Positions 28,667 to 49,019 of a stretch of 64,000 nucleotides of DNA are shown here, piece by piece. Both the position numbers and the translations under genes were made by a program. The stretch comes from Escherichia phage vB_EcoM_REC, in sequence record OM386667.1; one strand, given 5' to 3'. Under the pieces are notes generated by a model that was given only the letters and a program-made list of their open reading frames with translations, was not told the DNA's origin and did not search any database. Numbering within the stretch: the first letter of the stretch is position 1; each line of letters opens with the position of its first letter.

Positions 28667-31600
28667 ATGGCAACATTCCCAACATATCCAGCAACGTCTC
28701 TCGAACAGGGCGTAGACCTGGTTATTTTCTCATCTAACCAACTCCATGATGTTATTAATGGAAGTGCTACAGAGAGTATTGAAACAGAATCAGGGTTGAT
28801 ACCAACCCTGAGAAAATCCCTTGTTGACAACTTTTTCTTTAAAAGCCCATTGGATTGGGCGCAAGGCACAAACGAAACAGTTTTTAACCAACTACGTTAT
28901 TTTCAGAATGGGGTATTGAGCGGTTATTATTATGCTCCTAATGCTACATTGGTAAACCCAATTCCTATGCAAGGGACTCCAGTAGGAGATAACAACTGGG
29001 TATTGTGGGGACTGAAGACAGAACAACTAGCAACAGAAGTCACCCCTTGGGTATATTCTGGTGCAACTGGTTATGAAACAGTAATCAGTCCTCCCTACAT
29101 CTTTGATAGTGCTATTGTTACAATCAATGGTGTTATTCAGGTTCTGGGAGAAGCTTTCCGCATAGAAGATAGTAAAATCATTTTATCTGAACCTTTGGGA
29201 CATGATCCTGCAACAGGACTGCCAAACAAGCTTTTTGCCTATATTGGTAAAATCGTAGCTTCCGCAGATACAGATCCTAACTTAGAAAACCGTCTTGTCA
29301 GTTTAGAAACAAAAACTGAAGAACTGACAGAAAACATGGATAAAGTACCTTTACAAACTATTGCTCGTAAATACGGTTTGTTGGATGACGAAGTAGCTTA
29401 CGCAACAGCGGGTCAATCATTAACAGGGATTAAAGCTCTGTATGATCCGGTAGCACAATCTTCCTACACATTGCCTCCTAACATCACAGGGACTTTAACA
29501 TCTTTGTCTGTTTCTGGAGTAATGACTTATTCTGGCGGATCTGTAGATCTTTCTGCATTAGCTGTTGAACGTGGACAGTTTGTTCATTTGCCTACAAGCT
29601 TTGGTAATAATGTAACTCTGACAGCTAAAAATCAGACGATTGGGCGTGGCGCTGGTCGCTATCGTTGGGCGGGAAGTTTACCAAAAAGTATTTTAGCTTC
29701 TGATACATTGGAAACAAGTGGTGGATTAGGTCCAAATGCATGGGTTCTAACTAATACAGAAGGACTGTTAACCCCTCGTGGTGGAACATACAACGATTTA
29801 TTCGATGTTGTCCGCTTATCAGAATTTGCTAACAATACAACTACCTATACCACACCAGAAGCAGCTTTCCAGGCGGCACTGTTAGCAGCAAAAGCTTCGA
29901 AAAGTAAGATTCTCGACGCTTACGGTTGTGATATGACTTTCACGACAAGCTCTTTTGATATTCAAGATATCACTTTGCGTGGGGGTGTGTTCCGTGGTCA
30001 ACGCGATTATCGTGTGCAAAATGCTACAGTAGAAGGCACAACTTTCCGTAACTCTCGTGTTATGTATTGGGGTGGTGCTGTGCGCATGTTCGATTGTTTG
30101 TGGGACGGTGCTCCTCGCGCAGGTCAAGTTGGTAGCTTGGTATTCCAAGGAAACCCAATATCAGGTACTTTTGAAATTGATAATTGTACTTTTAAAAACG
30201 GGTTATATGGCATCCTTCAACAAGGAACAGGGGAACCAGTAACACGCGGTGTCTTCCGTAACCTTACCTTCATGGACATGCAAGGTGATGCAATAGAACT
30301 GAACGTCATCAATAAACATTATGATGATGGTTGTGTGATTGAGAATATTTACCTGTCTAATATTGATGGGACTAACGCTCCTATTCCTCTGTCCAACTGG
30401 GGTATCGGTATTGGTGTGGCTGGTAAAGGACCATATGGTTACGGAATTCCTGATGATCAATATTGCAAGAATATTACAATTCGTAACGTTTTTGCAAAAC
30501 GTTGTCGTCAGATTGTCCACGTAGAAGTTGGTCGTAATATTTCTATCGAAAACATTCATGGCGATCCAGATCAAACTGTATCTGTTGGGACAGGTTTGGC
30601 AACTGGCGCAGTTGTAATGTATGGAAGTAAAGATTTTACGATTGATGGTGTTTACGGAGAGCCTAAAACAGACGGTAGCACACTTGCAAGTAATATCCGT
30701 ATGATTTATTTGGAGTGGGGAACTAACGCAGTTCTGGATGAAGAGGGCAATCCGGTAGTTCCGGCACAGGGCAGACCTTCAAACCCATGCTTTAACTATT
30801 CTGTTCGTAACATTCACACCAAAACTGGGCGTGTTTTTGCAGGAGTTTCCGCTGGGCCAGGTTATGAAAACAGAGTCAGCTTTGAGAATATCCATTGTGC
30901 TGCGTTGCAGTTGTTCGGTGTAGCTTCTTGGCTTTCAATGTCTAACATCACCTGTAATATCTTTGATTGTGTTGGTCAACCTGAATCTGGTCCAGGGACA
31001 TTTTATGATGGATTCTTCCGTAGAGAAAAATCTGTTCTTGAGATGGTTAACGTAAACTGTTACCCAGATGGCAAGACTATGGTTACTGGTCGCCCACAGT
31101 GGAGCCGTTGCCGTTACTCTGATATTCATCGTGTCAACTGTAATGTTGAAGCTAATATGTATACCAATATCGCAGGTGGTATTGGAGCTATTGTAGGGAC
31201 AACTGGCAAAGTTTATTACTTAGAGCCTAACCCTAGCCGAAACATTGATGGGATGCATTTCCCAACAGGGAAGGAGTTTGACAAAGGGGATATGATAGTC
31301 AAAGCGGATAATACGTTCTTCCTTGTAACAACAAGTGGGGCATACATTCCAGATATCCCAGCTTTCGGTATTCGAGCTACACAAGCAGGAGATACCTTCC
31401 TGACACAGAACTTGACTCCTAATGGGACAGCAACAAACGCTTCTTGGTTGTATCACTATCCTCTGTCAGCAGGAACACGTATCCGTATTCCTGGTGCTGG
31501 TGTAGGTGGAGCAGATTTGGACACAGTTATTACTCGTGCACCTTATCAAGATAATGATACGTGGACTAACCCAGTTAAAATAGACATTGCAGATCCAATT

Positions 31601-31720
31601 GTAACGCCTACGAGTGCTGGAGTTAGAATCAAAACCATACCTAACGATTCTAGTAATGTTTCTGTAGGTAATACTGCGGTTATTCGCCCAACACCAGTGG
31701 TAGATGTGCCAACAACCTAA
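28667..31720 (+). CDS. tailspike with right-handed beta-helix, putative polysaccharide depolymerase
   Basis: 1017 aa; repeating motifs NxTxxN, NITIRNV, ISIENIHGD typical of pectate-lyase-fold beta-helices. Confidence 0.6.
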   Translation: MATFPTYPATSLEQGVDLVIFSSNQLHDVINGSATESIETESGLIPTLRKSLVDNFFFKSPLDWAQGTNETVFNQLRYFQNGVLSGYYYAPNATLVNPIPMQGTPVGDNNWVLWGLKTEQLATEVTPWVYSGATGYETVISPPYIFDSAIVTINGVIQVLGEAFRIEDSKIILSEPLGHDPATGLPNKLFAYIGKIVASADTDPNLENRLVSLETKTEELTENMDKVPLQTIARKYGLLDDEVAYATAGQSLTGIKALYDPVAQSSYTLPPNITGTLTSLSVSGVMTYSGGSVDLSALAVERGQFVHLPTSFGNNVTLTAKNQTIGRGAGRYRWAGSLPKSILASDTLETSGGLGPNAWVLTNTEGLLTPRGGTYNDLFDVVRLSEFANNTTTYTTPEAAFQAALLAAKASKSKILDAYGCDMTFTTSSFDIQDITLRGGVFRGQRDYRVQNATVEGTTFRNSRVMYWGGAVRMFDCLWDGAPRAGQVGSLVFQGNPISGTFEIDNCTFKNGLYGILQQGTGEPVTRGVFRNLTFMDMQGDAIELNVINKHYDDGCVIENIYLSNIDGTNAPIPLSNWGIGIGVAGKGPYGYGIPDDQYCKNITIRNVFAKRCRQIVHVEVGRNISIENIHGDPDQTVSVGTGLATGAVVMYGSKDFTIDGVYGEPKTDGSTLASNIRMIYLEWGTNAVLDEEGNPVVPAQGRPSNPCFNYSVRNIHTKTGRVFAGVSAGPGYENRVSFENIHCAALQLFGVASWLSMSNITCNIFDCVGQPESGPGTFYDGFFRREKSVLEMVNVNCYPDGKTMVTGRPQWSRCRYSDIHRVNCNVEANMYTNIAGGIGAIVGTTGKVYYLEPNPSRNIDGMHFPTGKEFDKGDMIVKADNTFFLVTTSGAYIPDIPAFGIRATQAGDTFLTQNLTPNGTATNASWLYHYPLSAGTRIRIPGAGVGGADLDTVITRAPYQDNDTWTNPVKIDIADPIVTPTSAGVRIKTIPNDSSNVSVGNTAVIRPTPVVDVPTT

Positions 31721-31784: not shown

Positions 31785-33809
31785 ATGAATTTAACAAGAC
31801 CTAATAGTGCGATAGCCGATCTAGTAGAAGCTACTTATCGAAAACGTCGCAGTTTTGAGGCAGGTTTTACATTACGTAATTCCCGTGAAGTTTTGCTGTT
31901 AGCGGCAGAAGGGAATTATTACCAATGGAAAGGAACTTTTCCTAAAGTAGTTCCAGCAAACTCTACGCCAGCCACCACAGGTGGTATTTCTTCCCTTGCA
32001 TGGCAAAGTGTTGGGACCGCTGATGATATAGCAATTATCAATGCCAAGTTTACGGCAATGCAGCAACAGATTGATGATCTGTCGGAAACAATACCTGAAG
32101 CTGGTAAATCGGCTTATCAGATCGCACTTGATAATGGTTTTGTTGGAACAGAAGCACAATGGCTTGCTTCTTTGAAAGGGGATACTGGTGCTCAACTTAA
32201 TATTAAAGGATCATTAGCAAGCACTAGTGAACTACCATCTACAGGTAACGTAGCAGGTGATGGTTATATTGTAGGAGATGTAATCTACGCTTGGGATGGG
32301 GCTGTTTGGAAACTTATCTCTTCTCTTGGGCCAGAAGGGAAATCAGCTTACGAGGTATGGTTAGCAGATGGTAATACAGGATCTGTTTATGACTTTCTTG
32401 CCTCTATAAAAGGTGATAAAGGAGACGTTGGTCCTACAGGTCCACAGGGTGCACCTGGTGTCAACGCTAATGGTTTTGATTACCGTGGAGATTTGCCTTC
32501 TACAAGTAACTTACCACAACCTAACTCTGAAAACGTAAGCCAAGCTTATTCTATTAATGGTAATCTTTATGTCTCTAATGGGACAGCTTGGGTCAACATG
32601 GGTAATATTGTTGGTCCTCAAGGTCCACAAGGTGAGGCAGGTAAAGACGGTCTAGATGGAACAGATGGAGACGAAGGGAAATCTGCATATCAAAGTTGGC
32701 TGGATGCTGGTAATGAAGGGACAGAAGTAGATTTTATTGCCTCACTTAAAGGTCCAAAAGGAGACAAGGGTGATCAAGGAGAGCGAGGTCCACAAGGTGA
32801 ACTAGGTCCACAAGGATCAGTGGGTGCAACAGGATCAGGTTTAGAGATTATCGGGGTTCTGAACAGCGAAGCTGAACTTCCTCCTACTGGAGAAGTAGGT
32901 GATGCATATAAAATTAATAATGATTTGTATGTTTGGGTTCAAGATGCTACAGAATGGATGAATGTAGGCAGTCTTGGAGGAACATCAATTACAGCTAAAG
33001 GTCATGTTCCGAACAGTGAAGCTCTCCCTGTTTATAATAACTACGGTGATGCCTATTTAACTGAAGACACTAGTAATCTTTACATCTATACCTACGATCA
33101 AGACACCAATTCCGCATCTTTTGTTGACATGGGAAGTATTAAAGGCGACAAAGGTGAAAAAGGGGATAAAGGAGATAAGGGTGATCCTGGAACAAACGGA
33201 ACCAACGGTACTGATGGGACCAACGGTAAGGACGGCGCACAGTGGTTTGTAGCAACAACTAATCCAGTCACAGGAGACGGTGTTATCAATGATTACGCCT
33301 TCAATACTACCACTGGAGCAGTATTTAAGAAAACAGATTCTTCTACGTGGACACTTATAGGAACTCTTCCTAGTATACCAGAAGCCCCTCAAGACGGCTT
33401 GACGTATGGTCGTTCTGATGGAAACTGGATCGAAATATCAGGATCAGATCCTACGGAAGCTATAACACCAACTAGAGTTACAGCAGGTTTCATGGAACTT
33501 GAAACAACTACTGCCAACTCTGGAGCATCTTGGACTCCTTCTGGAACTTCCAATATGTATGTTGTTACAGTAACTGACGCTCTGACAGTTGGAGCATGGC
33601 CTGGTGTCACTGGCTCTACAAAACCTAAAGCGTTTTCAGCAATGATTTATTTGATTCAAGATACAACGGGACACACGGTTACACTAGATGCGTCTTATGG
33701 AGCACTAAATGATACAGAAATAGCAACTACTGCTAACGCAGTAACAATTTTGCAATTAACGTATCCTGGTGTGGGTGATATCGTGGACATGGTTGTTGTA
33801 ACACGATAA
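31785..33809 (+). CDS. tail fiber with collagen-like Gly-X-Y repeats
   Basis: 674 aa; GPTGPQGAPG, GPQGPQGEAGKDGLDGTDGDEG, KGDKGEKGDKGDKGDPGTNGTNGTDGTNGKDG; three copies of GKSAYxxWLxxG...FxASLKG module. Confidence 0.65.
   Translation: MNLTRPNSAIADLVEATYRKRRSFEAGFTLRNSREVLLLAAEGNYYQWKGTFPKVVPANSTPATTGGISSLAWQSVGTADDIAIINAKFTAMQQQIDDLSETIPEAGKSAYQIALDNGFVGTEAQWLASLKGDTGAQLNIKGSLASTSELPSTGNVAGDGYIVGDVIYAWDGAVWKLISSLGPEGKSAYEVWLADGNTGSVYDFLASIKGDKGDVGPTGPQGAPGVNANGFDYRGDLPSTSNLPQPNSENVSQAYSINGNLYVSNGTAWVNMGNIVGPQGPQGEAGKDGLDGTDGDEGKSAYQSWLDAGNEGTEVDFIASLKGPKGDKGDQGERGPQGELGPQGSVGATGSGLEIIGVLNSEAELPPTGEVGDAYKINNDLYVWVQDATEWMNVGSLGGTSITAKGHVPNSEALPVYNNYGDAYLTEDTSNLYIYTYDQDTNSASFVDMGSIKGDKGEKGDKGDKGDPGTNGTNGTDGTNGKDGAQWFVATTNPVTGDGVINDYAFNTTTGAVFKKTDSSTWTLIGTLPSIPEAPQDGLTYGRSDGNWIEISGSDPTEAITPTRVTAGFMELETTTANSGASWTPSGTSNMYVVTVTDALTVGAWPGVTGSTKPKAFSAMIYLIQDTTGHTVTLDASYGALNDTEIATTANAVTILQLTYPGVGDIVDMVVVTR
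32100..33240 (+). repeat. collagen-like triplet repeats interleaved with three KSAY...ASLKG modules (approximate bounds)
   Basis: Read directly from translation of 31785-33809. Confidence 0.6.
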
Positions 33810-33812
33810 CAG

Positions 33813-33837
33813 AAGCCCCGAAAGGGGCTTTCTTTTT
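33813..33837 (+). terminator. rho-independent terminator after collagen-like fiber gene
   Basis: Stem AAGCCCC/GGGGCTT, loop GAAA, then TTCTTTTT. Confidence 0.8.
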
Positions 33838-33850
33838 ATGGAGGGTTTAA

Positions 33851-36523
33851 ATGTTTCCAATTCCAATATTTACTATTATGACCAGCACTGGTGTCGTTCC
33901 TCTGCCAGCAGGTATTGTTAAAAAAGTAATCACTCTAGATTACCCAGATAATGCTGGCAATTCTAATAGCAGTTTAGCAATTTTGCTTAATGATGGTAGA
34001 TTGTTTACTCAAGGCGCAAACCTTTTTGGTGAGATTGCAGATGGAACTCGTAGTGCACGATTCAATAATTTCCACTTAGCTTCTACTGTAGTAGCGGATG
34101 TGTTTACCGCAGATCGTTGTTTTGTTATTAAAACTAACAGTGGGGGATGGCAATATTCAGGATTGACAGCAGGGTTGGTAGGATCTATAGCAGCAGGTGG
34201 TACGGATGCATGTGTAACTACTTGGACCAGCTTTCCATCTGTAATAACAGGGACTATCTCTTTAGCCAATCTTAAAGAGGTTAAGGGAGGATATAACAAC
34301 ACTCTCTGGTTGATGAATAGTGGTGTTCTTTATGGATCAGGTCAAAACACAGTAGGCAGTTTAGGTGCAAGTACTACTAACGAAGTTTCTACTCCTCGTC
34401 AGATAACAAGTGCAGCAGTTGCTTTTGATGCAGGTTACAACCAATGCTCTTATGTCAACAATGTGGGAACCTTGCGTGTTTGTGGGGCTAGTAAAGGTTT
34501 AGCAGGTAATAATAACACAACAACAGCTTTTGTCAATGCCAAGATATCCGCTACTGAAACAGTGTATGTCAAAGATTACATCAATACAGTTTCCCAGACA
34601 ATAGTTGTAGGAGATACCTCCGGTGGCACGGGTACAGTAAACTACTTATATGTTAGATCTAATACAGAAACAACCTACACTAAACTGGACACCTTTGCAG
34701 CAGGTTTCTCAACATGGAAATTTCCACCAAGCCGCCACTCTTTTTTCGTTGGGATCAATAATTCCTTGTGGGCTATTGGTAAGAACTACACTGCAAACTT
34801 AGGTTTGGGGTATGATTCTGCGAGCGGAGATCCACTCCAAGTGGGAAAACCAGTTAAACCTGAAGGAGTGGGTTCCTGGGATATAAACAAGCTCACAAGC
34901 GTTCATACACTGAATATGGATGTTACTAACCAATTAGGTTATCAAGGAACCTTTTTCGTTTATAATGGAGATATGTATTATTCAGGTATTTGGAAAGATG
35001 GGAAAGCCTCGTATCTGTTCAATAGTGGTCTAAACTATAATAAATTCACACCAATAGCAAGCTCCGTGATTACAGGGGATGTTCTGGCAACTGGCTTAAC
35101 TACAGATTCTTTAGGAATTTGTATTGTAGGTGGAACTAAACAGTTGACACATTCTGTTAGCCCAGAAGGAGGTAAACTTTTCAATATTAAATACACTTCT
35201 TCTGCCCCTGCAAACATGACAATATCATCTACTGGTTTAATGACTTTCCATGCAGAAGGTGGTTTTGATGCAGGTATGACAGCCTTAAACGCTGAAGGAA
35301 CAATTTTATCAGATACCTCTGGAGGATATGCTTCAACATTGAGTGTTTACACCCCTAGCTTATCTGCGATGGATGTAGGAACAACACAAACAATGGTAGC
35401 AGAAATAACACCAACAGGAGCAGCAAGCTTACCTGATATGGTTGTTGAGTATACAACTACAGATCCTAATGTTGCTACAGTAGATCCTACAACTGGTGTA
35501 ATAACTGGTGTTGGTGATGGTGGTTGTAGGATTGGTTGCACAGCTACGTATCAAGGTGTTGTTACCGCTTCTGATAGTTCTTATTTAACGGTGAATGCTG
35601 TTGCGGGAAAGGAGTTAGCTCCATCTCCGAGTAGTAGTTTAACGGTTCTAAACGGATATTTCAACCACTCGGCAGATGGGGCAATTACGTTCCCAACTTT
35701 ATCGGGTACTGTTACACCAGCTAACTTTGTAGTTAAGGTGGATGACGTTGTAGTTCCTTCAAGTAAAGTAATATTTAGAAACAAAGCTTTCTCTACAGTG
35801 GATAGTTATCCAGCAGGAGAATATAGACTGGCTATTGAATTTGCAAGTGCTTCAGTAGTTAATAGTGTGGAAGTGTCTATGGAAGCAAACCCAAGTCTTT
35901 TAGAACTTTGGGGCGGTAATAGAATCAGTTATTCTACAAGCCCAGCCTCACAATTCTTAAAAGGTTGTGCTAACTTAAGACGAATAACTTCTGATTGTTT
36001 TAGTAACACATCTTACACCGGAACATCTATAAGCGGTATCTTCTCTGGCTGCACAAGTTTGACAGCTATCCCTGAAGGATTATTCAGTGATGCTTTATTT
36101 CCTTCAATGACAACAATGTCAAGCACGTTTGAAGGTTGTACATCTTTAACATCTATTCCTTCAGATTTATTTAAGAATCTGTCAAAAGTTACAAGATATT
36201 CTTACACCTTTAAAGATTGCACCTCTCTTGCAGAAGTTCCAGCAGGAATGTTTGATAATATTCCAACGAAAGTGACCTCTTTAACAGCTACATTCCAAGG
36301 TTGTTTAGGACTTACAGATTTTAATAAGATCTTTAATGACAACCCAGGGTTAACTGTTTGTGGTAAACGTGGAGCATTATCTTCTTTCTTTAGTGGATGC
36401 ACAAATCTTACAGGAACAGGAACAACATTAACAAATACATTAGGCGGAGTAGCTAATAGTTACCTATTCAGGTATTGCACAAAACTTTCTGATTATAACA
36501 ACATTCCTTCCGGTTATAAATAA
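33851..36523 (+). CDS. tail fiber/adhesin with Ig-like (Big_2-type) domain and C-terminal Cys-containing leucine-rich-like repeats
   Basis: 890 aa; Ig-like segment TPTGAASLPDMVVEYTTTDPNVATVDPTTGVITGVGDGG; repeats F.GCTSLT.IP..LF recur four to five times near the C-terminus. Confidence 0.55.
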   Translation: MFPIPIFTIMTSTGVVPLPAGIVKKVITLDYPDNAGNSNSSLAILLNDGRLFTQGANLFGEIADGTRSARFNNFHLASTVVADVFTADRCFVIKTNSGGWQYSGLTAGLVGSIAAGGTDACVTTWTSFPSVITGTISLANLKEVKGGYNNTLWLMNSGVLYGSGQNTVGSLGASTTNEVSTPRQITSAAVAFDAGYNQCSYVNNVGTLRVCGASKGLAGNNNTTTAFVNAKISATETVYVKDYINTVSQTIVVGDTSGGTGTVNYLYVRSNTETTYTKLDTFAAGFSTWKFPPSRHSFFVGINNSLWAIGKNYTANLGLGYDSASGDPLQVGKPVKPEGVGSWDINKLTSVHTLNMDVTNQLGYQGTFFVYNGDMYYSGIWKDGKASYLFNSGLNYNKFTPIASSVITGDVLATGLTTDSLGICIVGGTKQLTHSVSPEGGKLFNIKYTSSAPANMTISSTGLMTFHAEGGFDAGMTALNAEGTILSDTSGGYASTLSVYTPSLSAMDVGTTQTMVAEITPTGAASLPDMVVEYTTTDPNVATVDPTTGVITGVGDGGCRIGCTATYQGVVTASDSSYLTVNAVAGKELAPSPSSSLTVLNGYFNHSADGAITFPTLSGTVTPANFVVKVDDVVVPSSKVIFRNKAFSTVDSYPAGEYRLAIEFASASVVNSVEVSMEANPSLLELWGGNRISYSTSPASQFLKGCANLRRITSDCFSNTSYTGTSISGIFSGCTSLTAIPEGLFSDALFPSMTTMSSTFEGCTSLTSIPSDLFKNLSKVTRYSYTFKDCTSLAEVPAGMFDNIPTKVTSLTATFQGCLGLTDFNKIFNDNPGLTVCGKRGALSSFFSGCTNLTGTGTTLTNTLGGVANSYLFRYCTKLSDYNNIPSGYK

Positions 36524-36525
36524 GA

Positions 36526-36553
36526 AAAGGAGCCATTTGGCTCCTTTCTTTTA
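36526..36553. terminator. bidirectional rho-independent terminator between convergent late and early modules
   Basis: 9-bp stem AAAGGAGCC/GGCTCCTTT, loop ATTT, flanked by A-run and T-run. Confidence 0.8.
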
Positions 36554-36579: not shown

Positions 36580-37467
36580 TCAGAACGGAATATCATCATC
36601 GAAGTCCATCGGAGGTTCTTCTTGATTACTTGGAGTTGGTTCTGGTTGTGGTTCAGGCTTTTTAACTTCTTTCTTCTCTTCTTTCTTAGGTTGTTCTGCG
36701 GAACCACGAATGGCAGCAGCAACTTTATCAGACAGAGCCAGAACTTTACGAGCAGAATCAATCAGATCTTCTACAGATACAGTCTTAATGGTATGGTCTT
36801 TACAAGCATTAAGGATAGCGTGACCAACAGATGCCCCAAGATCATAATCATTAATATCAACGCCACGAGATTCAGCAATTTCAGATTTCAGCGTGACAGT
36901 TGCAGATTGAACAACCCCAGCGATATCGAAAGCATCGCCTTTAACACCATTACGAATCAGTTCCAGTGCACCATTTACTGCGTGACCAGTTTCCAGACCT
37001 ACAGTATCACGTTTTTTATAGGACTGTTTAGGAGCAGCATCGTTGGAACCTTTATTGCCAGAAGATTTGTTAGACTTCTGAACACCATCGGTAGACAATA
37101 CTGTAATACGAGATTTTTTAGTATTGTAGTAAGTTTTACCGCCTTTATTATCAACGCGATCAATATCAATACTTACTTCTACACCTTTTTCAATAGTGAT
37201 CCAGTTATCACCTTCTTTGACTTGCAGGTTTTCATAACCTTCTTTCAGTTCAATGTCACCAAGAGAAATCCAAACACCTTTCTCCTCTGGTTTAGCACCT
37301 TTCTCTTTCAGAACAAGAGAAGCTCGGTGAGTTGAAACAATCGTTTTTCCTTCCCAATGAAAAGTTTTAGGTTCAGCGAATTTATCCAGTTTAACGTAGT
37401 CTACGATACCAGTTGCATAAGTTACGGTTTTGCCTTTACGATCAGTTTCAGTATTAATTACGGACAT
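36580..37467 (-). CDS. ssb: single-stranded DNA-binding protein
   Basis: 295 aa; Gly/Ser/Pro-rich linker; C-terminal acidic tail ...PPMDFDDDIPF, identical in its last residues to the canonical bacterial SSB tip. Confidence 0.8.
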   Translation of the reverse strand: MSVINTETDRKGKTVTYATGIVDYVKLDKFAEPKTFHWEGKTIVSTHRASLVLKEKGAKPEEKGVWISLGDIELKEGYENLQVKEGDNWITIEKGVEVSIDIDRVDNKGGKTYYNTKKSRITVLSTDGVQKSNKSSGNKGSNDAAPKQSYKKRDTVGLETGHAVNGALELIRNGVKGDAFDIAGVVQSATVTLKSEIAESRGVDINDYDLGASVGHAILNACKDHTIKTVSVEDLIDSARKVLALSDKVAAAIRGSAEQPKKEEKKEVKKPEPQPEPTPSNQEEPPMDFDDDIPF

Positions 37468-39144: not shown

Positions 39145-42100
39145 TCAATGACAGGATGCCCAGGAATTACCCACGTCATATCCGGCAGTAAGCTGAACGT
39201 TAAGATTGTAAAATTCTCCAGCCTTAGTAACAGCTAAAGCAGCAAGTTCACCTGCCCGACTATAAGCTGTAAACCATCCACCTTTGGGAGATTCATGAAT
39301 GTTAGCCCAAATTTGCCCTGTCTCTTTTTCCTTATTATGCTTCCATTCTTCAACTTTAGCAAGGCATTCTTTATCAATTTTCTTTTGTTCTTCAGGATCG
39401 TCTACTTTCTTCCAACCTAATGATTCAGGTGAAAACCATTTGAATTCTACAAGGTTACGAGAAACTTCAAGCTGGGCTTCATCGTGGTATGCAATCATTT
39501 GTTGCACGAAGTCTTTATTCTTCCAGTCATCTTTAAAGAAGTCAACACTTAGTCCTTCTTCTTCGATCATATCGTCATAAATAACCATTGCACGTTTAGC
39601 ACAGATAACCCCACCACTTTGGAACAGAGAGTTAAGAATCGCGTGAGCAGAACGAGTAGGAACCTTACGACCGTCAATACCCAAAACATACTGTTTACCA
39701 GTCTTAACCCAGAAATCGTTTAAACGTTCTTTAAGACGCGCCAGTGGGAATGCAGCTTCCCAGAAAGCATCGAACACCAGTTGCCCTGTAAACTTATCGC
39801 TACCAATTGTTTTAGCAACCTTGTCGGCTTGTGCACCATAGGTAATACCATACTTAACAGATTTAGCAGGACTACGTTCAAATTTACGTCCAATAGTTTC
39901 AGTGATACGTTTTGCCATCATGGTATGAACATCGTTAGGCTTCTCTAACAAGAGAGCGTTACAGTATTCATGAGGCTCCGGTTCGTAGCGCCAACAGTTT
40001 CCTGTGATGGTAATGCAGTCTTTCTGACGCATGACCCACGTACCAAGTTCTGTTTGTGGACACCAAACATCCTCTACACCCCACTCTTCAATAGTCAAAC
40101 TTTGAACAGGAATGTGAGAGCGGTTAGCCAATGTTACCACTTTTACTTTCTGCTCTTTTGTATTGAAAGCTACAGAGATATTGCCTCCATGCACCAGGTA
40201 CGAGGCAGTTAAAGCTGCTTCAAAAAGTTCACCTGGGTTCTGCGCCCAACGCCAAACAGGTTTTTGTTTATGTTCATGCCAGTAACCATCTGCAATCAAG
40301 AAACCTTCCAAGAAAGCTACACGCTCGGCATGAGACATATTAACTACACGCTCTACCCACGGAACATCCCATTTACCTTGTTGAACAGAAGTTAAACTAT
40401 TTACCTGATCTTGTTCCATGTTAAATGGAGCATTACAAATAATATTATCTCCTGTGCAAAGCTCGGCAGTTGTTCTGACTTTAGGCACATAAGTATTCCC
40501 TTTACTACGGGTATTAACATACCAACGGTGATCTGCTGTTGCACGGTAAGTGTGTGATTTCCCTTTAATCTCAAACGTCTTACTATTTTTATAGAAGACC
40601 TTACCTTTTACTTTAGTCCATTCTTTCAGACCTGTTTCAGCATTGTACCCTAAAATCTCATCCCCTTCCTTCAGGTCGTGATATCCTACCCAACCTTTAC
40701 GAGTCAAAGCTTGAGCATCCATCGGCACACAGTAATGTGATTCAATTTTTGCTTCCAAAGAGTCGAAGTCGTAGCCGATCTGGAAGTATTTAGGAACCTC
40801 TACACCAAACAAGTTACGCATCTCCCATCCAAACAAAGATGTGACACGAGGAATATTAGCTACAGATCTATGTTTCATACGAGAGGTTGCAGCATCACAT
40901 GTAGCGGCTGGTGTAGGAATACGCCCATCCGCCCTTACTGCGGCTAAGAAACCTTTATCGTATTCTTGATCTTCTTCATCTTCTTCCCAATCAGCACCGC
41001 CACCTAAAATAGAGTTCCTACGATGCTTATACGTTAAGTATTCTACAATCTGTGTAGCATAAGGAAATTTCTCACCCAAAGCTTGCAGGTTAGGACAAAT
41101 TTCTTTTTCCTGACCTTTGGTAAAACATGGGTTAGTCAATACTTTAAGACCGCGACCTTTACCTTTTGCTATACGCTCTTGAATCTTCCTTTCCAAAGTT
41201 TCCGGTGTGCACTCCAGATGATCACAACGATCCTGACAAAAATTAGAAGATAGAGTTTGCTCAACGTAAGCTCTAATACCTTTCTGAAGTTCTTCCTCGC
41301 TCTTTTTAATTTTGGTGCCAGATTTAAGCGTCAAGTCTTTATCTTTATATTCAGACGGTACCCAACCTAATCCTACGAGCCAGTTTTTAATATGGGTTGT
41401 ATCGTTCAATGTTGCAGGGATGTTAGGATCACATAGAGGCTCATCTGCTGCAACTGGCAGTTTCCACTCTTTCCCCCACATAACTAACCACCAATCGCCA
41501 TCCCTCTCTTCCAAATGACCATCATGTTTCTTAGCAAAATTGATCATATGGTTAGTTGGCTCTAAGTTCTTTTTAATTTGCAACTTAGGTGGAATAAAAG
41601 CCTTAAGATAACCTTTTGTTGCTGGTTTAGGTGGCAAAATAGGCTCAACGAGTAAACGAAGACGCTCCATTTCTGCATCCAAAAAAGCAAGGTTCTCTTC
41701 TGCTTGCTTCATGTTAAAAGCAAACCCACGGTGTTCCTGGCGTGTAATAATGTCTGCTACACGTTGTTCAAGTTCAAATGGACCTTCCCATTTATCATAA
41801 TCGCCCCATTCTTCCATAAGGTAATTATATACGCTCGTATTGGCTTTGTTGTCATAGATACAGTAATAAAGCATATCCGCAGCAAAAGTCTTAAATCGAT
41901 CTTCTTCTGGAATCTCTTTACGGAAATCTATTTTTACATCACCACCTGCTTTTCGAGAAAGTGCTGCCAAGCTATGTCCTGATTTGCCCTCAATCTTTCG
42001 ATCTGGGTTTAACACTTTACTCAAAATCAAGGAGTCAATAAGTTTTACCTTATTTTTGCCCCACGTATTATATTTAACACTGTAATCTAATCCATAAAAC

Positions 42101-42477
42101 AGTTTTGTAGCCAACCAGTCGTAGTTGATACCGTTGTGAGCCACAGCCATTTCAACCAGATATTCAGGCTTGTCTTTAAAATAACCTTCATGATTAATAA
42201 AATCTGGGAAATCTTTTAGTTGAAAATGTGTGTAATCTTGCGCCACATACTCTTTAAGAACATATGTGTATTTACCATCTGACTCTTCATAAGGACGCCC
42301 ATCAAAGATGTATTTAGGGCCATCGTGGAAAGCTACTATTTCTCCTGTTTCATGGTTCTCTAAGACAATACAGTGCATTTGAAATGTGTCTTTGAGACGA
42401 TAAGGACTAGCTAAATAATCAATAGTGTCATTATTCAACAATCCGTTTGCTTCAATATCCCATGTAAACTTACTCAC
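39145..42477 (-). CDS. family-A DNA polymerase with 3'-5' exonuclease domain, interrupted by an intein-like element
   Basis: 1110 aa; exonuclease motif DIEANGL; motif A-like YDFDSLEAKIESHY; motif B-like KSVKYGITYGAQ; motif C-like HDEAQLEV; about 245 aa insertion after motif A. Confidence 0.85.
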   Translation of the reverse strand: MSKFTWDIEANGLLNNDTIDYLASPYRLKDTFQMHCIVLENHETGEIVAFHDGPKYIFDGRPYEESDGKYTYVLKEYVAQDYTHFQLKDFPDFINHEGYFKDKPEYLVEMAVAHNGINYDWLATKLFYGLDYSVKYNTWGKNKVKLIDSLILSKVLNPDRKIEGKSGHSLAALSRKAGGDVKIDFRKEIPEEDRFKTFAADMLYYCIYDNKANTSVYNYLMEEWGDYDKWEGPFELEQRVADIITRQEHRGFAFNMKQAEENLAFLDAEMERLRLLVEPILPPKPATKGYLKAFIPPKLQIKKNLEPTNHMINFAKKHDGHLEERDGDWWLVMWGKEWKLPVAADEPLCDPNIPATLNDTTHIKNWLVGLGWVPSEYKDKDLTLKSGTKIKKSEEELQKGIRAYVEQTLSSNFCQDRCDHLECTPETLERKIQERIAKGKGRGLKVLTNPCFTKGQEKEICPNLQALGEKFPYATQIVEYLTYKHRRNSILGGGADWEEDEEDQEYDKGFLAAVRADGRIPTPAATCDAATSRMKHRSVANIPRVTSLFGWEMRNLFGVEVPKYFQIGYDFDSLEAKIESHYCVPMDAQALTRKGWVGYHDLKEGDEILGYNAETGLKEWTKVKGKVFYKNSKTFEIKGKSHTYRATADHRWYVNTRSKGNTYVPKVRTTAELCTGDNIICNAPFNMEQDQVNSLTSVQQGKWDVPWVERVVNMSHAERVAFLEGFLIADGYWHEHKQKPVWRWAQNPGELFEAALTASYLVHGGNISVAFNTKEQKVKVVTLANRSHIPVQSLTIEEWGVEDVWCPQTELGTWVMRQKDCITITGNCWRYEPEPHEYCNALLLEKPNDVHTMMAKRITETIGRKFERSPAKSVKYGITYGAQADKVAKTIGSDKFTGQLVFDAFWEAAFPLARLKERLNDFWVKTGKQYVLGIDGRKVPTRSAHAILNSLFQSGGVICAKRAMVIYDDMIEEEGLSVDFFKDDWKNKDFVQQMIAYHDEAQLEVSRNLVEFKWFSPESLGWKKVDDPEEQKKIDKECLAKVEEWKHNKEKETGQIWANIHESPKGGWFTAYSRAGELAALAVTKAGEFYNLNVQLTAGYDVGNSWASCH
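39997..40731 (-). other. intein-like (Hint domain) insertion within DNA polymerase
   Basis: Starts with Cys after ESHY; TxxDH block (TADHRW); LAGLIDADG-like LEGFLIADGYW; ends ...ITITGN followed by Cys (CWRY). Confidence 0.55.
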
Positions 42478-45596: not shown

Positions 45597-45875
45597 TTAA
45601 AATGGTTCGTTAGTCTCCATCATATATTCTGCTTCTAGTTCTTCCATATGCTTTCTAAATTGGAAAGCAATTTCTGCTACAGTTACATTTAAATCTTTTT
45701 CAAAAACTTCTGTAGAGCCTTCATAAAAACGAATACCGTCAATTAAAAGCCCTCCGTGGTAATCCCAATCACTTTCACGAGAAAGCGGGTTAGGCTCTTC
45801 ATAATAGTAATCCACCTCCACAACTAAGGCTTTCCCGTTACGAGTGATGTATTCAAAATCAAAAGTGTTAATCAT
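45597..45875 (-). CDS. hypothetical protein
   Basis: 92 aa, start overlaps upstream stop. Confidence 0.4.
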   Translation of the reverse strand: MINTFDFEYITRNGKALVVEVDYYYEEPNPLSRESDWDYHGGLLIDGIRFYEGSTEVFEKDLNVTVAEIAFQFRKHMEELEAEYMMETNEPF

Positions 45876-46819
45876 TATAGCTCCTCAAATAAAAGTCTAC
45901 GACGCTCATTCAACACATCAATGTGATAATGAGTCCTGACATACTTAGCTAATGCTAATCCTTTCTCCATGCAAACATCGGGAGCACTTAATAAGTATTC
46001 CGTAATATCTTTCCACTCGGAAGGTGTTTCAGCAAAGAATAACAAATCTTTAAACTCTTGTGTATGATAATTCTCACGAGGAGAACAGATCAAAGGTAAA
46101 CCCTTAGCACCTGCCTCAAGAATTTTAAGATTGCTTTTTGCATTATTAAACACGTTATCAATCAATGGCGCAAGACTGATTTGATGACCATCGTAAGATT
46201 CCATGTAGTTGGCATATGGTCTTACACCTTCATAAACACAAGTTGGTGCTACATTTTCTCTGATTACAGACCATTCACGACTACTTAAAACTTCAGAATC
46301 CCTACGAAAACCACATATTGTAAGATCTTTACCAAAATCGGGCAAGATAGCCAAATCTTGTTTATGTGTTTCACTTCCAGCCCAGACTAATGGAGTTTTG
46401 GAGTAGCGATCACGGGTCAACACAAATTGACCTTCATCATAAGGAAGTCCATTAGGGATTATGTGCACATTATCATTGTATTGTGAAAGTTCAACTTGCA
46501 AGGCAGGTGTCGTAGTTGTAACAAGATCACTGTGCTCTAAAAACCATTTTAAATGTTCACGAATACCTGATTCAAAAATACCTTCTAACATGTGTCCTTT
46601 TGGAATAACTAAAGAGTCATCCAAATCCATAACCATTTTAAAGCCTAGGTTTTTAAGGGCTAAAAAGCCCTCTTTACCTTTTGTTGGCACTCCGTTAAAA
46701 ACGAAAACGTTGTATTTAGGTTGTGAAGAGAACTGCCTTGAGTAAGGCAGCACTACCCTATGGAAATCGCAGACACTATAATTGATTCCGTTACGATTGT
46801 CAAGAATTATTTGTCCCAT
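45875..46819 (-). CDS. putative glycosyltransferase (GT-B-like), paralog 1
   Basis: 314 aa; C-terminal KILEAGAKGLPLICS motif; clear paralog of the adjacent gene. Confidence 0.4.
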   Translation of the reverse strand: MGQIILDNRNGINYSVCDFHRVVLPYSRQFSSQPKYNVFVFNGVPTKGKEGFLALKNLGFKMVMDLDDSLVIPKGHMLEGIFESGIREHLKWFLEHSDLVTTTTPALQVELSQYNDNVHIIPNGLPYDEGQFVLTRDRYSKTPLVWAGSETHKQDLAILPDFGKDLTICGFRRDSEVLSSREWSVIRENVAPTCVYEGVRPYANYMESYDGHQISLAPLIDNVFNNAKSNLKILEAGAKGLPLICSPRENYHTQEFKDLLFFAETPSEWKDITEYLLSAPDVCMEKGLALAKYVRTHYHIDVLNERRRLLFEEL

Positions 46820-46826
46820 ACTTCAC

Positions 46827-47813
46827 CTACAAACTTTCAATAACCTGGCGTCGCAACTCGTTTGCATCTGCCAGATTATAATGTGTTCGAACATGTTCAG
46901 CCAAGAACAAGCCACGATCTTCCCGATAGTTTGGATTGCGAAGAAGCTTAACAATTTCGTAATGCCATTCTGCTTTATTCTCTGCGTAAGCAACAGCGCG
47001 AGCATCTACAGGGTTAAAATAAGGTAATACCTTAGAACAAACAATCGGAATACCTTTTGCTCCAGCTTCCAGGATTTTGAGATTACTTTTACAATTATTA
47101 AAATCATTGTCTACCAAAGGAGCTATAGCAATAGCATGACTTTCGTAAACACTCATGTAATTATCTAAATCTTTTACAGCAGCTTTATATTTGGCATTTG
47201 GTAAATTTCTGCGAATCTTAATCCACTCTTGTCCCGTGATGCTTTGTGATGCTTCATATCCCGCAATAGTAAGAAGTTCATCATCGAAAGTATTAGAGAC
47301 TAGTCGTAAATCTGGTTCGTGACTAGCACCGCCAGCCCATACAACAGGGGTACCGGATGAACGATCATTTGACAAAGTGAATTGTCCGCTATCAAAAGGA
47401 AGTGCATTTCGGATCACAACGACATTTCTATTTAAGTGACGGATCTTATATGCCAAATATTCTGTAGTCACAATAACCACATCAGCAAGCTTAACCATAG
47501 CTACAATAGCATGAGTGTTTGACTCGTATAGACTTGCTAAATAATGCTCTGGATTAAGTTGGTAAAAATCATCTAAATCTACAACAACCTTAACACCTTG
47601 ACGTTTCAAAGATAAAACGTATTCTGCACCTTTAGAGTGGATACGGTTAAACACAACAATATCTTTCTTAGGTTGAAAATTATTGTTGTTAAATGGCATA
47701 ACAATACGATGATAGTCACAACCGCTATGAGGTTTTGCATCAATTTTTAGTTTAGACCATTTTTTATTTGACATGTGCCAGTGCCTCCTCATAGGAAATT
47801 CGGATTTTCCCAT
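46827..47813 (-). CDS. putative glycosyltransferase (GT-B-like), paralog 2
   Basis: 328 aa; KILEAGAKGIPIVCS; VVWAGGASHEPDL; aligns along its length with 45875-46819. Confidence 0.4.
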   Translation of the reverse strand: MGKSEFPMRRHWHMSNKKWSKLKIDAKPHSGCDYHRIVMPFNNNNFQPKKDIVVFNRIHSKGAEYVLSLKRQGVKVVVDLDDFYQLNPEHYLASLYESNTHAIVAMVKLADVVIVTTEYLAYKIRHLNRNVVVIRNALPFDSGQFTLSNDRSSGTPVVWAGGASHEPDLRLVSNTFDDELLTIAGYEASQSITGQEWIKIRRNLPNAKYKAAVKDLDNYMSVYESHAIAIAPLVDNDFNNCKSNLKILEAGAKGIPIVCSKVLPYFNPVDARAVAYAENKAEWHYEIVKLLRNPNYREDRGLFLAEHVRTHYNLADANELRRQVIESL

Positions 47814-48447
47814 TTTTAATATCCTCTAAAGATGCTTTATATTCTTCCCAGTTAATCCCGATAGCAGCTTCTTTCTCTTCTTTTGTCAGATTAGCAAAAG
47901 GCATAGGGTTGTTTCCAAAAACATCGTCTGGGTGGATATAAGCCATGATACGAAGTGGACAAGGTGTTGCCTGAATACCATGATTCAAACCAGCAGCTTG
48001 CAAACGGTGTCCCCATTCAGCATCTTCAAAACCATAGCCGTGAGTGTAAGGACGGAAATAACCCATCTTCTCAACAACGGCACGAGAATACATTGCAAAT
48101 TGACACATTGCAAGTTCCCAGAGAATAACTTCTCCTTTGCTTCCAACAACTTTATCTTTGAAATACTCCGGCATACCAAAGAAATCCCATCCTCCAGAGA
48201 CAGCTTGATCTACAAAGTATGTTTCCCATCCCTCCATGACTGGGTAGCAATCGTCGTCAAAAATAAACCAATAATCATAACCTTCTTCATAAAACTGGTG
48301 CATAAGTTCATTCCTGGCATAAGCTACACCTTTACGATCTGGATCGTTGAATACTCGAAAATCTGCACGTGGATCTGTTACAAGGTAGTCTTTAAGTGGA
48401 CGGACACCTACAGTGATAACACCCACTCCAATTTTAATATTTTCCAT
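47764..48447 (-). CDS. putative glycosyltransferase (GT-A-like, DxD motif)
   Basis: 227 aa; YWFIFDDDCYP (DxD) and FGMPEYF; Rossmann-like N-terminus. Confidence 0.45.
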   Translation of the reverse strand: MENIKIGVGVITVGVRPLKDYLVTDPRADFRVFNDPDRKGVAYARNELMHQFYEEGYDYWFIFDDDCYPVMEGWETYFVDQAVSGGWDFFGMPEYFKDKVVGSKGEVILWELAMCQFAMYSRAVVEKMGYFRPYTHGYGFEDAEWGHRLQAAGLNHGIQATPCPLRIMAYIHPDDVFGNNPMPFANLTKEEKEAAIGINWEEYKASLEDIKNGKIRISYEEALAHVK

Positions 48448-48455
48448 TTTCTCTC

Positions 48456-49019
48456 CTAAATAGTTTTACTGTGATCATGACAGTGTAATAAATGATGTAT
48501 AGACCGTTGAGGATTTGTTTGACCTAATCTGTAAATGTGAAACAGATACATTCCCCGCATCAATCCTAACCTCTTTCCTTTTTCATGTAAAGTGCGAGAG
48601 AAAATTAAGTCGAATTGGATAGATTTTTCTTCGAAAGGAATTTCATTCCACAATGATTTTCTAAAAAGCAAGAAGAAACCTGCCAGAGGTGTTCCGAAAG
48701 GAACTTCTTCAACACTCACTTTATGATATTCTCTTGCAATCTTAGCATATTCTATATGGTTTAGAATATCTGGATCATCGTTAATTTGGTTAGAGAAAAG
48801 CTGATAACCACTGCCTAACCTGTTACAAGTTGCACCTATTACATCAAAAGGCGGGTTTGACATAACAAGCTCTTCAAGCATAGATGGTTGATCAGGTAGG
48901 AGGAACATTGTATCGGTATCTCTTAAACACACCCAACTATCATCTGGAAGAACGGCAATGGCTTTATTGATAGCCTTGCCGATATTTCCTGTCAGATAGG
49001 GAGTAATATAATAAATCAT
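48456..49019 (-). CDS. putative glycosyltransferase-like protein (GT-A-like)
   Basis: 187 aa; WVCLRDTDTMFL (DxD-like). Confidence 0.35.
   Translation of the reverse strand: MIYYITPYLTGNIGKAINKAIAVLPDDSWVCLRDTDTMFLLPDQPSMLEELVMSNPPFDVIGATCNRLGSGYQLFSNQINDDPDILNHIEYAKIAREYHKVSVEEVPFGTPLAGFFLLFRKSLWNEIPFEEKSIQFDLIFSRTLHEKGKRLGLMRGMYLFHIYRLGQTNPQRSIHHLLHCHDHSKTI

Follow-up and report, generated by a model that had tools for sequence, protein, structure and literature searches.

Introduction

Phapecoctavirus phages (Stephanstirmvirinae), which are under testing against avian-pathogenic and multidrug-resistant E. coli, carry a protein of "890 or 891 aa" that a 2025 paper provisionally named TfpM1 (PMC12695924). 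Which genes form which fibres in this phage group is unclear according to the BASEL paper (PMC8594841). Here we dissect the TfpM1 gene found in a 64,000-nucleotide stretch of Escherichia phage vB_EcoM_REC (sequence record OM386667.1; this whole stretch is called the window). Its 890-aa product is 100% identical to HOR27_gp226 of phage ESCO5, the protein that bears the TfpM1 name (YP_009787159.1; "tail protein" in RefSeq, "hypothetical protein" in GenBank), and is referred to below as gp226.

The gene is already catalogued, as a known tail-module gene of a known phage group. PHROG 11922 ("tail protein") matched it end to end with 1357 bits, and 67 phage records match it, mostly at 95-99% identity, with 33 records covering at least 80% of its length. 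In Phapecoctavirus and 'Wecvirus' phages, for example phage tuntematon and phiWec188/190, the same gene occurs as TfpM1 or "tail protein" (PHROG 11922), 81-100% identical across all 890 aa and in the same genomic position. A preliminary description, made from the sequence alone, had placed the open reading frame (ORF) exactly, at 33851-36523 on the + strand, and had read its product as an immunoglobulin (Ig)-like segment followed by leucine-rich repeats (LRRs) of the BspA type, possibly a tip derived from the bacterial host. The domain content held up and the host origin did not; missed altogether were the exchangeable nature of the tip and a predicted propeller (residues ~1-397) that would make up the largest part of the protein.

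A conserved trunk with an exchangeable tip

Comparison with its relatives divides gp226 into a conserved proximal part and a variable, horizontally exchanged distal part. The features concerned are the following.

33851-36523, + strand: complete coding sequence of gp226, 890 aa (ORF listing)
33851-35041, + strand: predicted RCC1-like seven-bladed beta-propeller of ~27 strands, residues 1-397, conserved trunk (Pfam, AlphaFold2, Foldseek)
35054-35602, + strand: two tandem Big_2 Ig-like domains, residues 402-584 (~402-495 and 496-584; Pfam, AlphaFold2)
35576-35602, + strand: 'SSYLTVNAV', residues 576-584, conserved last strand of the second Big_2 domain and left junction of the tip exchange (alignment of relatives; identity with phage UP17 ends at 35601)
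35602-36544, + strand: exchangeable tip cassette (DNA and protein comparison)
35615-35866, + strand: small beta-sandwich of unassigned family, residues 589-672, which moves together with the LRR in the cassette (AlphaFold2, cassette comparison)
35867-36520, + strand: LRR solenoid of seven Cys-ladder units F-x-[GDY]-C-x-x-L, BspA/TpLRR/DUF285 class, residues 673-890 (Cys anchoring, AlphaFold2, homologues)
36526-36547, no strand assigned: bidirectional intrinsic-terminator-like hairpin between the gp226 gene and the convergent SSB gene (pattern scan, sequence)

Phage UP17 follows the window at 97% DNA identity as far as nt 35601, loses all similarity there and returns to that level at nt 36545. 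Because identity breaks at 35601/36545, the exchanged unit consists of the linker, the beta-sandwich, the LRR solenoid, the stop codon and most of the terminator stem. At the protein level, relatives have the trunk in common and diverge downstream of the conserved "SSYL(T/A)VNAV" strand. Three of them (P0128-130) are 99-100% identical to gp226 through the propeller and the first Big_2 domain and then carry an unrelated tip of ~300 aa, which matches the NCBIfam model GTA_spike_fiber (NF048003) at E 2.6e-20. The same is seen in the 891/888-aa allele of ESCO13, phAPEC8, UP17 and phiWec179: its trunk is 97-100% identical to that of gp226 and its locus and junction motif are the same, but its C-terminal ~300 aa are unrelated, with a GTA_spike_fiber-type domain where gp226 has the sandwich and LRR. 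Sister proteins P0141-145 have a classic DUF285/PARCEL tip at the junction used in gp226, and P0147-155 end immediately past it. There are thus at least four natural states at the junction: LRR tip, GTA-spike-like tip, classic DUF285 tip and no tip.

Another set of relatives (P0122-127) has trunks merely 75-86% identical to that of gp226 and tips that are 89-98% identical. Since these tips are more alike than the trunks that bear them, the cassette moves between diverged trunks. At a threshold of at least 90% identity, the LRR tip occurs in 35 records of the phage collection and the alternative tip in 39, including phAPEC8, ESCO13 and phiWec179.

Rearranged relatives

Each module is dispensable in one or another of the relatives. 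Phage phi92 retains only a 202-aa Big_2 protein, gp152, followed by the unrelated gp153; the latter was considered as a detached equivalent of either tip and rejected (BLASTP E 0.37 or worse). A 127-kb phage contig (L009) encodes a Big_2 plus tip protein that lacks the propeller. It is preceded there by a 216-aa ORF (L009:3929-4579), which might be an alternative adaptor replacing the propeller; this ORF is not a split-off N-terminus, having no similarity to gp226.

Two further arrangements were observed. In P0131 (573 aa, 12 member sequences), both Big_2 domains are deleted in frame ('...VLATS|LTVNAVAGK...') so that the propeller is joined directly to the tip cassette; a short repeated 'LT' at the junction suggests a microhomology deletion, and the N-terminus is shorter, beginning at gp226 M155. 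A Logan contig (SRR10359460; L008:7001-8191) encodes P0001, a 396-aa chimera with 11 member sequences in its cluster, in which the N-terminal 74 aa of the adjacent collagen-like fibre, its Tail_spike_N anchor, are fused directly to gp226 residues 569-890. The chimera corresponds to deletion of window positions 32007-35554, and these 3,548 nt are flanked by an imperfect microhomology of ~25 nt; because this contains no exact run longer than ~6 nt, collapse during assembly seems unlikely. P0001 looks like a natural mini-fibre that would show the LRR tip on another anchor.

The trunk: a predicted propeller and two Ig-like domains

Pfam finds RCC1-type repeats within the N-terminal 330 residues, with one RCC1 repeat (PF00415) at 24.2 bits against a cutoff of 21.7. 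The whole-domain model WD40_RLD (PF25390) matches at E 7.9e-11, its 42.3 bits lying under the cutoff of 150. AlphaFold2 was run on the full-length monomer with a 63-sequence alignment, and the resulting model (predicted local distance difference test, pLDDT, 87.2) consists of four confident blocks with low-confidence linkers at residues 398-401 and 585-588, the second at a pLDDT below 50. The propeller block extends over residues ~8-380, with ~27 strands in residues 8-378, and superposes on UVR8 (Foldseek E 6.6e-14, template-modelling score 0.69) and also on RCC1, HERC2 and RPGR, with target-normalised template-modelling scores of 0.65-0.69. Over its first ~195 aa gp226 has 39% identity with the start of a 1,878-aa lateral tail fibre protein, the product of the last such gene in rV5-like phages.

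The Ig-like segment that had been noticed ahead of the repeats is confirmed by Pfam, which places Big_2 (PF02368) in two stretches (35.8 bits; cutoff 22.8). Structure prediction, one of the checks proposed in the preliminary description, shows two Ig-like beta-sandwiches at residues 402-584 and a solenoid at the C-terminus. The Big_2 pair is 65% identical to phi92 gp152.

The tip: a diverged Cys-ladder repeat

The repeat array begins near residue 703 and spans ~188 aa. Its seven Cys-anchored units lie at residues 706, 734, 763, 790, 818, 850 and 876, with periods of 28, 29, 27, 28, 32 and 26 aa. Five of them fall within the last 150 aa, in agreement with the earlier count of four to five units for that segment. 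The motif then proposed, F.GCTSLT.IP..LF, is present in full only in the three central units (731, 760 and 787), and the outer units are degenerate.

Chance is ruled out as the origin of the repeat, and so is low complexity, which had been named as a possible artefact: six occurrences of F..C..L were counted against 0.06 expected, none of 20,000 residue shuffles reached six, whether the whole protein or the C-terminal 201 aa was shuffled, and the units are strongly diverged. Pairwise identity between units is 32-56% in DNA and 8-46% in protein. Because it is so low at both levels, the protein repeat must be old and diverged, neither a low-complexity tract nor a recent duplication.

AlphaFold2 folds residues 673-890 as a solenoid with one short strand per repeat. 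The predicted tip thus has the marks of an LRR: tandem units of 20-30 aa, a hydrophobic/Cys ladder and a curved solenoid with a parallel beta-sheet.

Class of the LRR tip

Standard profiles gave results that speak against placing the tip in a defined LRR family. LRR_5 (PF13306) has no match in the full protein at E<=1 and none in the tip at E<=0.001. DUF285 (PF03382) stays below threshold at residues 752-818 (12.8 against 25 bits, E 0.099), as does the PARCEL repeat model TIGR02167 (21.9 against 30 bits), and a narrow profile of the tip family run against PDB sequences returned only the designed LRR OR464, at E 0.013. The sequence-only link to solved LRRs is therefore weak, and the argument for an LRR is carried by the fold and by transitive homology.

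Direct homology is nonetheless strong and plentiful: phmmer with the tip gave 192 matches in a word-indexed search, one of them named by NCBI as a "BspA family leucine-rich repeat surface protein". Among the aligned tip homologues, 26 of 58 are positive for LRR_5 (best E 1.7e-26) and 14 of 58 for DUF285. The likeness to BspA-type LRRs seen in the preliminary description is therefore found in the homologues and in the predicted solenoid but not as an LRR_5 match in the tip itself. With the solenoid as the only query, an exhaustive search reached 934 cluster representatives at E<=1e-30 and 17,508 at E<=1e-3. Giant proteins (1,000-7,400 aa) with up to 26 matched stretches are numerous among them, and several of the top relatives carry an N-terminal Mfa-like fimbrillin domain, a domain typical of Bacteroidota fimbrial proteins. 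On the strength of these homologues, and despite the failed thresholds, we place the tip, as a probable divergent member, in the BspA/DUF285 LRR class; it stands out by the greater length of its unit and by its "IPxxLF" signature, and it lies outside both Pfam families as defined.

Function

Most probably, though with ample room for doubt, gp226 serves as an accessory protein for receptor binding or adhesion, and the cassette determines its specificity. The protein would be built as beads on a string, in which the conserved trunk, a propeller with two Big_2 spacers, holds it on the virion and projects it outward. A flexible linker would lead from the trunk to the exchangeable tip, formed by the small beta-sandwich and the seven-unit Cys-ladder solenoid, and this tip would attach to a ligand on the host surface in the manner of other LRR adhesins, probably via the concave face of the beta-sheet. 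Phages of the group would then change what the protein binds by recombining at the 'SSYL(T/A)VNAV' junction and so exchanging the cassette as a whole.

Support for this role is indirect. It includes the place of the gene at the end of the tail-fibre cluster and the N-terminal likeness of its product to the rV5-type lateral tail fibre. The argument that the tip occupies a binding position comes from the alternative tip, because its prototype, the head-spike fibre of RcGTA, has been shown to bind capsular polysaccharide in vitro (PMC10218006). ('RCC1' in that paper stands for locus tags, rcc01081 and similar, and not for the domain.) Host genetics offers a second comparison. Infectivity is lost on a yhaH mutant in the LRR-tip isolates phiWec188/190 and on an flhD mutant in phiWec179, 181 and 186 (PMC12548472). 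The alternative tip is carried by phiWec179 and presumably by phiWec181 and 186 too, because TfpM1 is reported to be conserved within the phiWec179 group (PMC12695924).

Several points count against a receptor-binding role. The association of yhaH and flhD with tip type is a correlation only, and a confounded one, because TfpL also differs between the phage groups (PMC12695924); moreover, YhaH is an inner-membrane protein, out of reach of a tail tip. The text of the 2026 phi92 cryo-EM study contains no virion assignment of the Big_2 homologue gp152, and the gp226 homologue is not named individually in the text of the rV5 proteomics paper. Justusliebigvirus lacks the whole gene, which is thus dispensable in that lineage (PMC12695924). 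All of the predicted domains are of usually monomeric fold types, and the AlphaFold2 monomer model consists of globular beads only, with no trimerising coiled-coil and no (triple) beta-helix. Such a non-trimeric bead architecture would be atypical for a tail fibre and would leave the mode of attachment open.

Because no virion assignment was found and the monomeric beads lack a trimerisation element, the main rival is a decoration or adherence protein with a role like that of T4 Hoc, and not a receptor binder; its Big_2 and LRR domains would stick the particle to non-host material such as mucus, extracellular matrix or other bacteria and so raise encounter rates in the gut. We consider this unlikely, while acknowledging that several observations suit it: the Ig-like Big_2 domains and bead-like, probably monomeric folds, the annotation of phi92 gp152 with a lambda gpV-like fold, and the filing of PHROG 215, 'structural protein with Ig domain', under head and packaging. 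Absence of the gene in Justusliebigvirus and the natural trunk-less deletion variant are consistent with a non-essential role, and host matrix proteins are ligands of the BspA-type LRR adhesins found in oral bacteria. However, the gene lies among tailspike and tail fibre genes rather than head genes, its product has its N-terminus in common with the rV5-type lateral tail fibre, and allelic exchange of the cassette against a capsule-binding-type domain is what would be expected of a host-specificity determinant.

A further suggestion, slightly more doubtful again, is that the LRR tip is a protein-binding rather than glycan-binding adhesin module, drawn from a pool common with Bacteroidota fimbrial-type LRR proteins, which attaches the coliphage to a proteinaceous target; gp226 would then be a monomeric, non-fibrous attachment protein working beside glycan-degrading tailspikes. 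If so, the target could be an E. coli surface appendage or outer-membrane protein, or else mucus, matrix proteins or neighbouring bacteria.

Very improbable is a non-structural protein that is made late and stays unassembled, for example one released at lysis or acting on the surface of the infected cell. The texts of the phi92 cryo-EM and rV5 proteomics papers give no proteomic or structural sign of incorporation, and a terminator-like hairpin directly upstream of the gene could mean separate or low expression. Yet no signal-peptide-like or enzymatic domain is among the profile matches, the gene runs in the direction of the tail module, in which it stands last, and its product is homologous to BASEL-phage proteins annotated as lateral tail fibres.

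Least credible of all is recent capture of the tip, as an adhesin module, from the bacterial host, a reading that goes back to the host-derived tip suggested in the preliminary description: although the repeat family occurs overwhelmingly in large bacterial surface-type proteins (the 17,508 representatives, some with fimbrillin domains), blastn in distant mode found nothing in 5,426 complete E. coli genomes, which largely refutes recent capture from E. coli, the best relatives outside Phapecoctavirus are merely 33-45% identical, relatives come from gut-metagenome contigs (some phage-like) or Bacteroidota-type fimbrillin proteins and not from the host phylum, and the GC content of the bin 34001-36000 (0.406) falls among the values found elsewhere in the window. 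One outside relative lies on the contig of a Phocaeicola metagenome-assembled genome.

Another outside relative is found on a 30-kb phage-like gut-metagenome contig (L005:6590-9419; ENA ERZ14651279), where two tandem DUF285/LRR genes (426 and 472 aa) stand beside genes for an RNA ligase and a BACON-domain protein. A phage with such paralogous LRR tips could have two specificities.

Flanking signals, neighbouring genes and public records

The gp226 gene closes the + strand tail cluster, where it is placed after the tailspike and fibre genes. Three further features flank it.

33812-33831, + strand: terminator-like hairpin, GAAGCCCCGAAAGGGGCTTT then a T-run, between the collagen-like fibre gene and the gp226 gene (pattern scan, sequence)
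33840-33845, + strand: Shine-Dalgarno-like GGAGGG, 5 nt before the ATG (read directly from the sequence)
36580-37467, - strand: SSB gene, convergent neighbour

The hairpin at 33812-33831 may attenuate read-through into the gp226 gene. The fibre gene upstream of it (31785-33809, + strand; 674 aa), homologous to phi92 gp151, begins with a Tail_spike_N anchor, after which Pfam Collagen G-x-y stretches (n=4) alternate with repeated globular units of ~60-70 aa. Before it lies the gene for a colanic-acid-degradation tailspike (colanidase; 28667-31720, + strand; 1017 aa), in which Tail_spike_N is internal (residues 302-361) and not N-terminal. This tailspike is ~210 aa longer than phi92 gp150, and its first ~200 aa match other tail-fibre PHROGs, which suggests an extra N-terminal module that could be a docking platform for other fibres.

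Beyond the tail cluster, DNA polymerase I (39145-42477, - strand; 1110 aa) is ~250 aa longer than its homologue on L009 (861 aa). Within the protein, a segment that opens with 'CVPMDAQALTRKGW...' resembles an intein or homing insertion; Pfam gives only DNA_pol_A (residues 845-1009), with no intein/Hint family at E<=0.001. Four consecutive annotated glycosyltransferase genes (~45874-49018, - strand; L001:26024-29168) stand in the replication module beside primase/helicase and a DNA N6-adenine methyltransferase, and could be a DNA or surface-glycan modification cluster.

In the public records, tail genes 76-98% identical to those of these coliphages occur in Campylobacter phage B15/A147/C15, Pseudomonas phage PsgM04F, Klebsiella phage ZCKP1, Dompiswa phage TSP7_1 and Acinetobacter 'Phapecoctavirus' records. 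Either the host ranges are very broad or the hosts given in these records need a check.

Comparison with known systems

A literature search turned up no phage receptor-binding protein of the LRR/BspA kind with experimental characterisation. It is uncommon, as the preliminary description had said, but not new for a phage protein to carry an LRR tip: BFVD contains uncultured-phage proteins annotated as BspA-family or LRR, and 'tail protein I' of the P2-like Klebsiella phage ST16-OXA48phi5.4 (1,008 aa) has Big_2 followed by LRR_5/DUF285 repeats and is 33% identical to the gp226 tip over 185 aa. That protein differs from gp226 in using a P2 gpI baseplate domain as its anchor, and it belongs to another family (Peduoviridae) with another arrangement.

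The bacterial LRR proteins of the BspA/TpLRR type (LRR_5; PDB 6mlx, 4fs7, 4h09) differ from the gp226 tip in period, which is roughly 23 aa in TpLRR and 26-32 aa here, and, by reading of the sequence, in motif, with 'L-x-x-I-x-I-P' in TpLRR where gp226 has 'L-T-S-I-P-x-x-L-F'. Their LRRs are joined to a bacterial surface anchor, whereas that of gp226 is joined to a phage tail-module protein. DUF285/PARCEL proteins, including the tips of sister proteins P0141-P0145, have the pattern F-x-G-C-x-S-L ... V-T ... F in common with gp226. The unit counted in P0141 has 25 aa, which the gp226 unit exceeds by ~2 residues; aligning the gp226 tip profile with the P0141 DUF285 tip in hhalign gave 56% probability and E 1.1e-4 over 32 columns only. 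The strongest non-phage relatives of the solenoid are Bacteroidota fimbrillin-LRR proteins (Mfa_like_1 with DUF285/LRR_5; P0194, P0200, P0234 and P0278), which are 41-48% identical to it in matched stretches (whole-protein E 1e-61 to 1e-80) and carry more repeats and a fimbrillin-like N-terminal anchor in place of the phage trunk.

The practical value of the locus lies in a precisely mapped natural swap site. Exact, structure-aware boundaries of the exchangeable tip (residues ~585-890, nt 35602-36544) provide a ready design rule for host-range engineering, and ESCO5 and ESCO13 form a simple natural pair of alleles with which recognition by a gp226-type protein can be tested. Relative to TfpM1 as it stands in the accessible literature, the sequence is no different; what is added here is the dissection into propeller, two Big_2 domains, sandwich and LRR, together with the boundaries of the cassette. 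Taken as a whole, gp226 is probably a modular host-recognition protein like many others, to which the LRR tip adds a member and not a new system.

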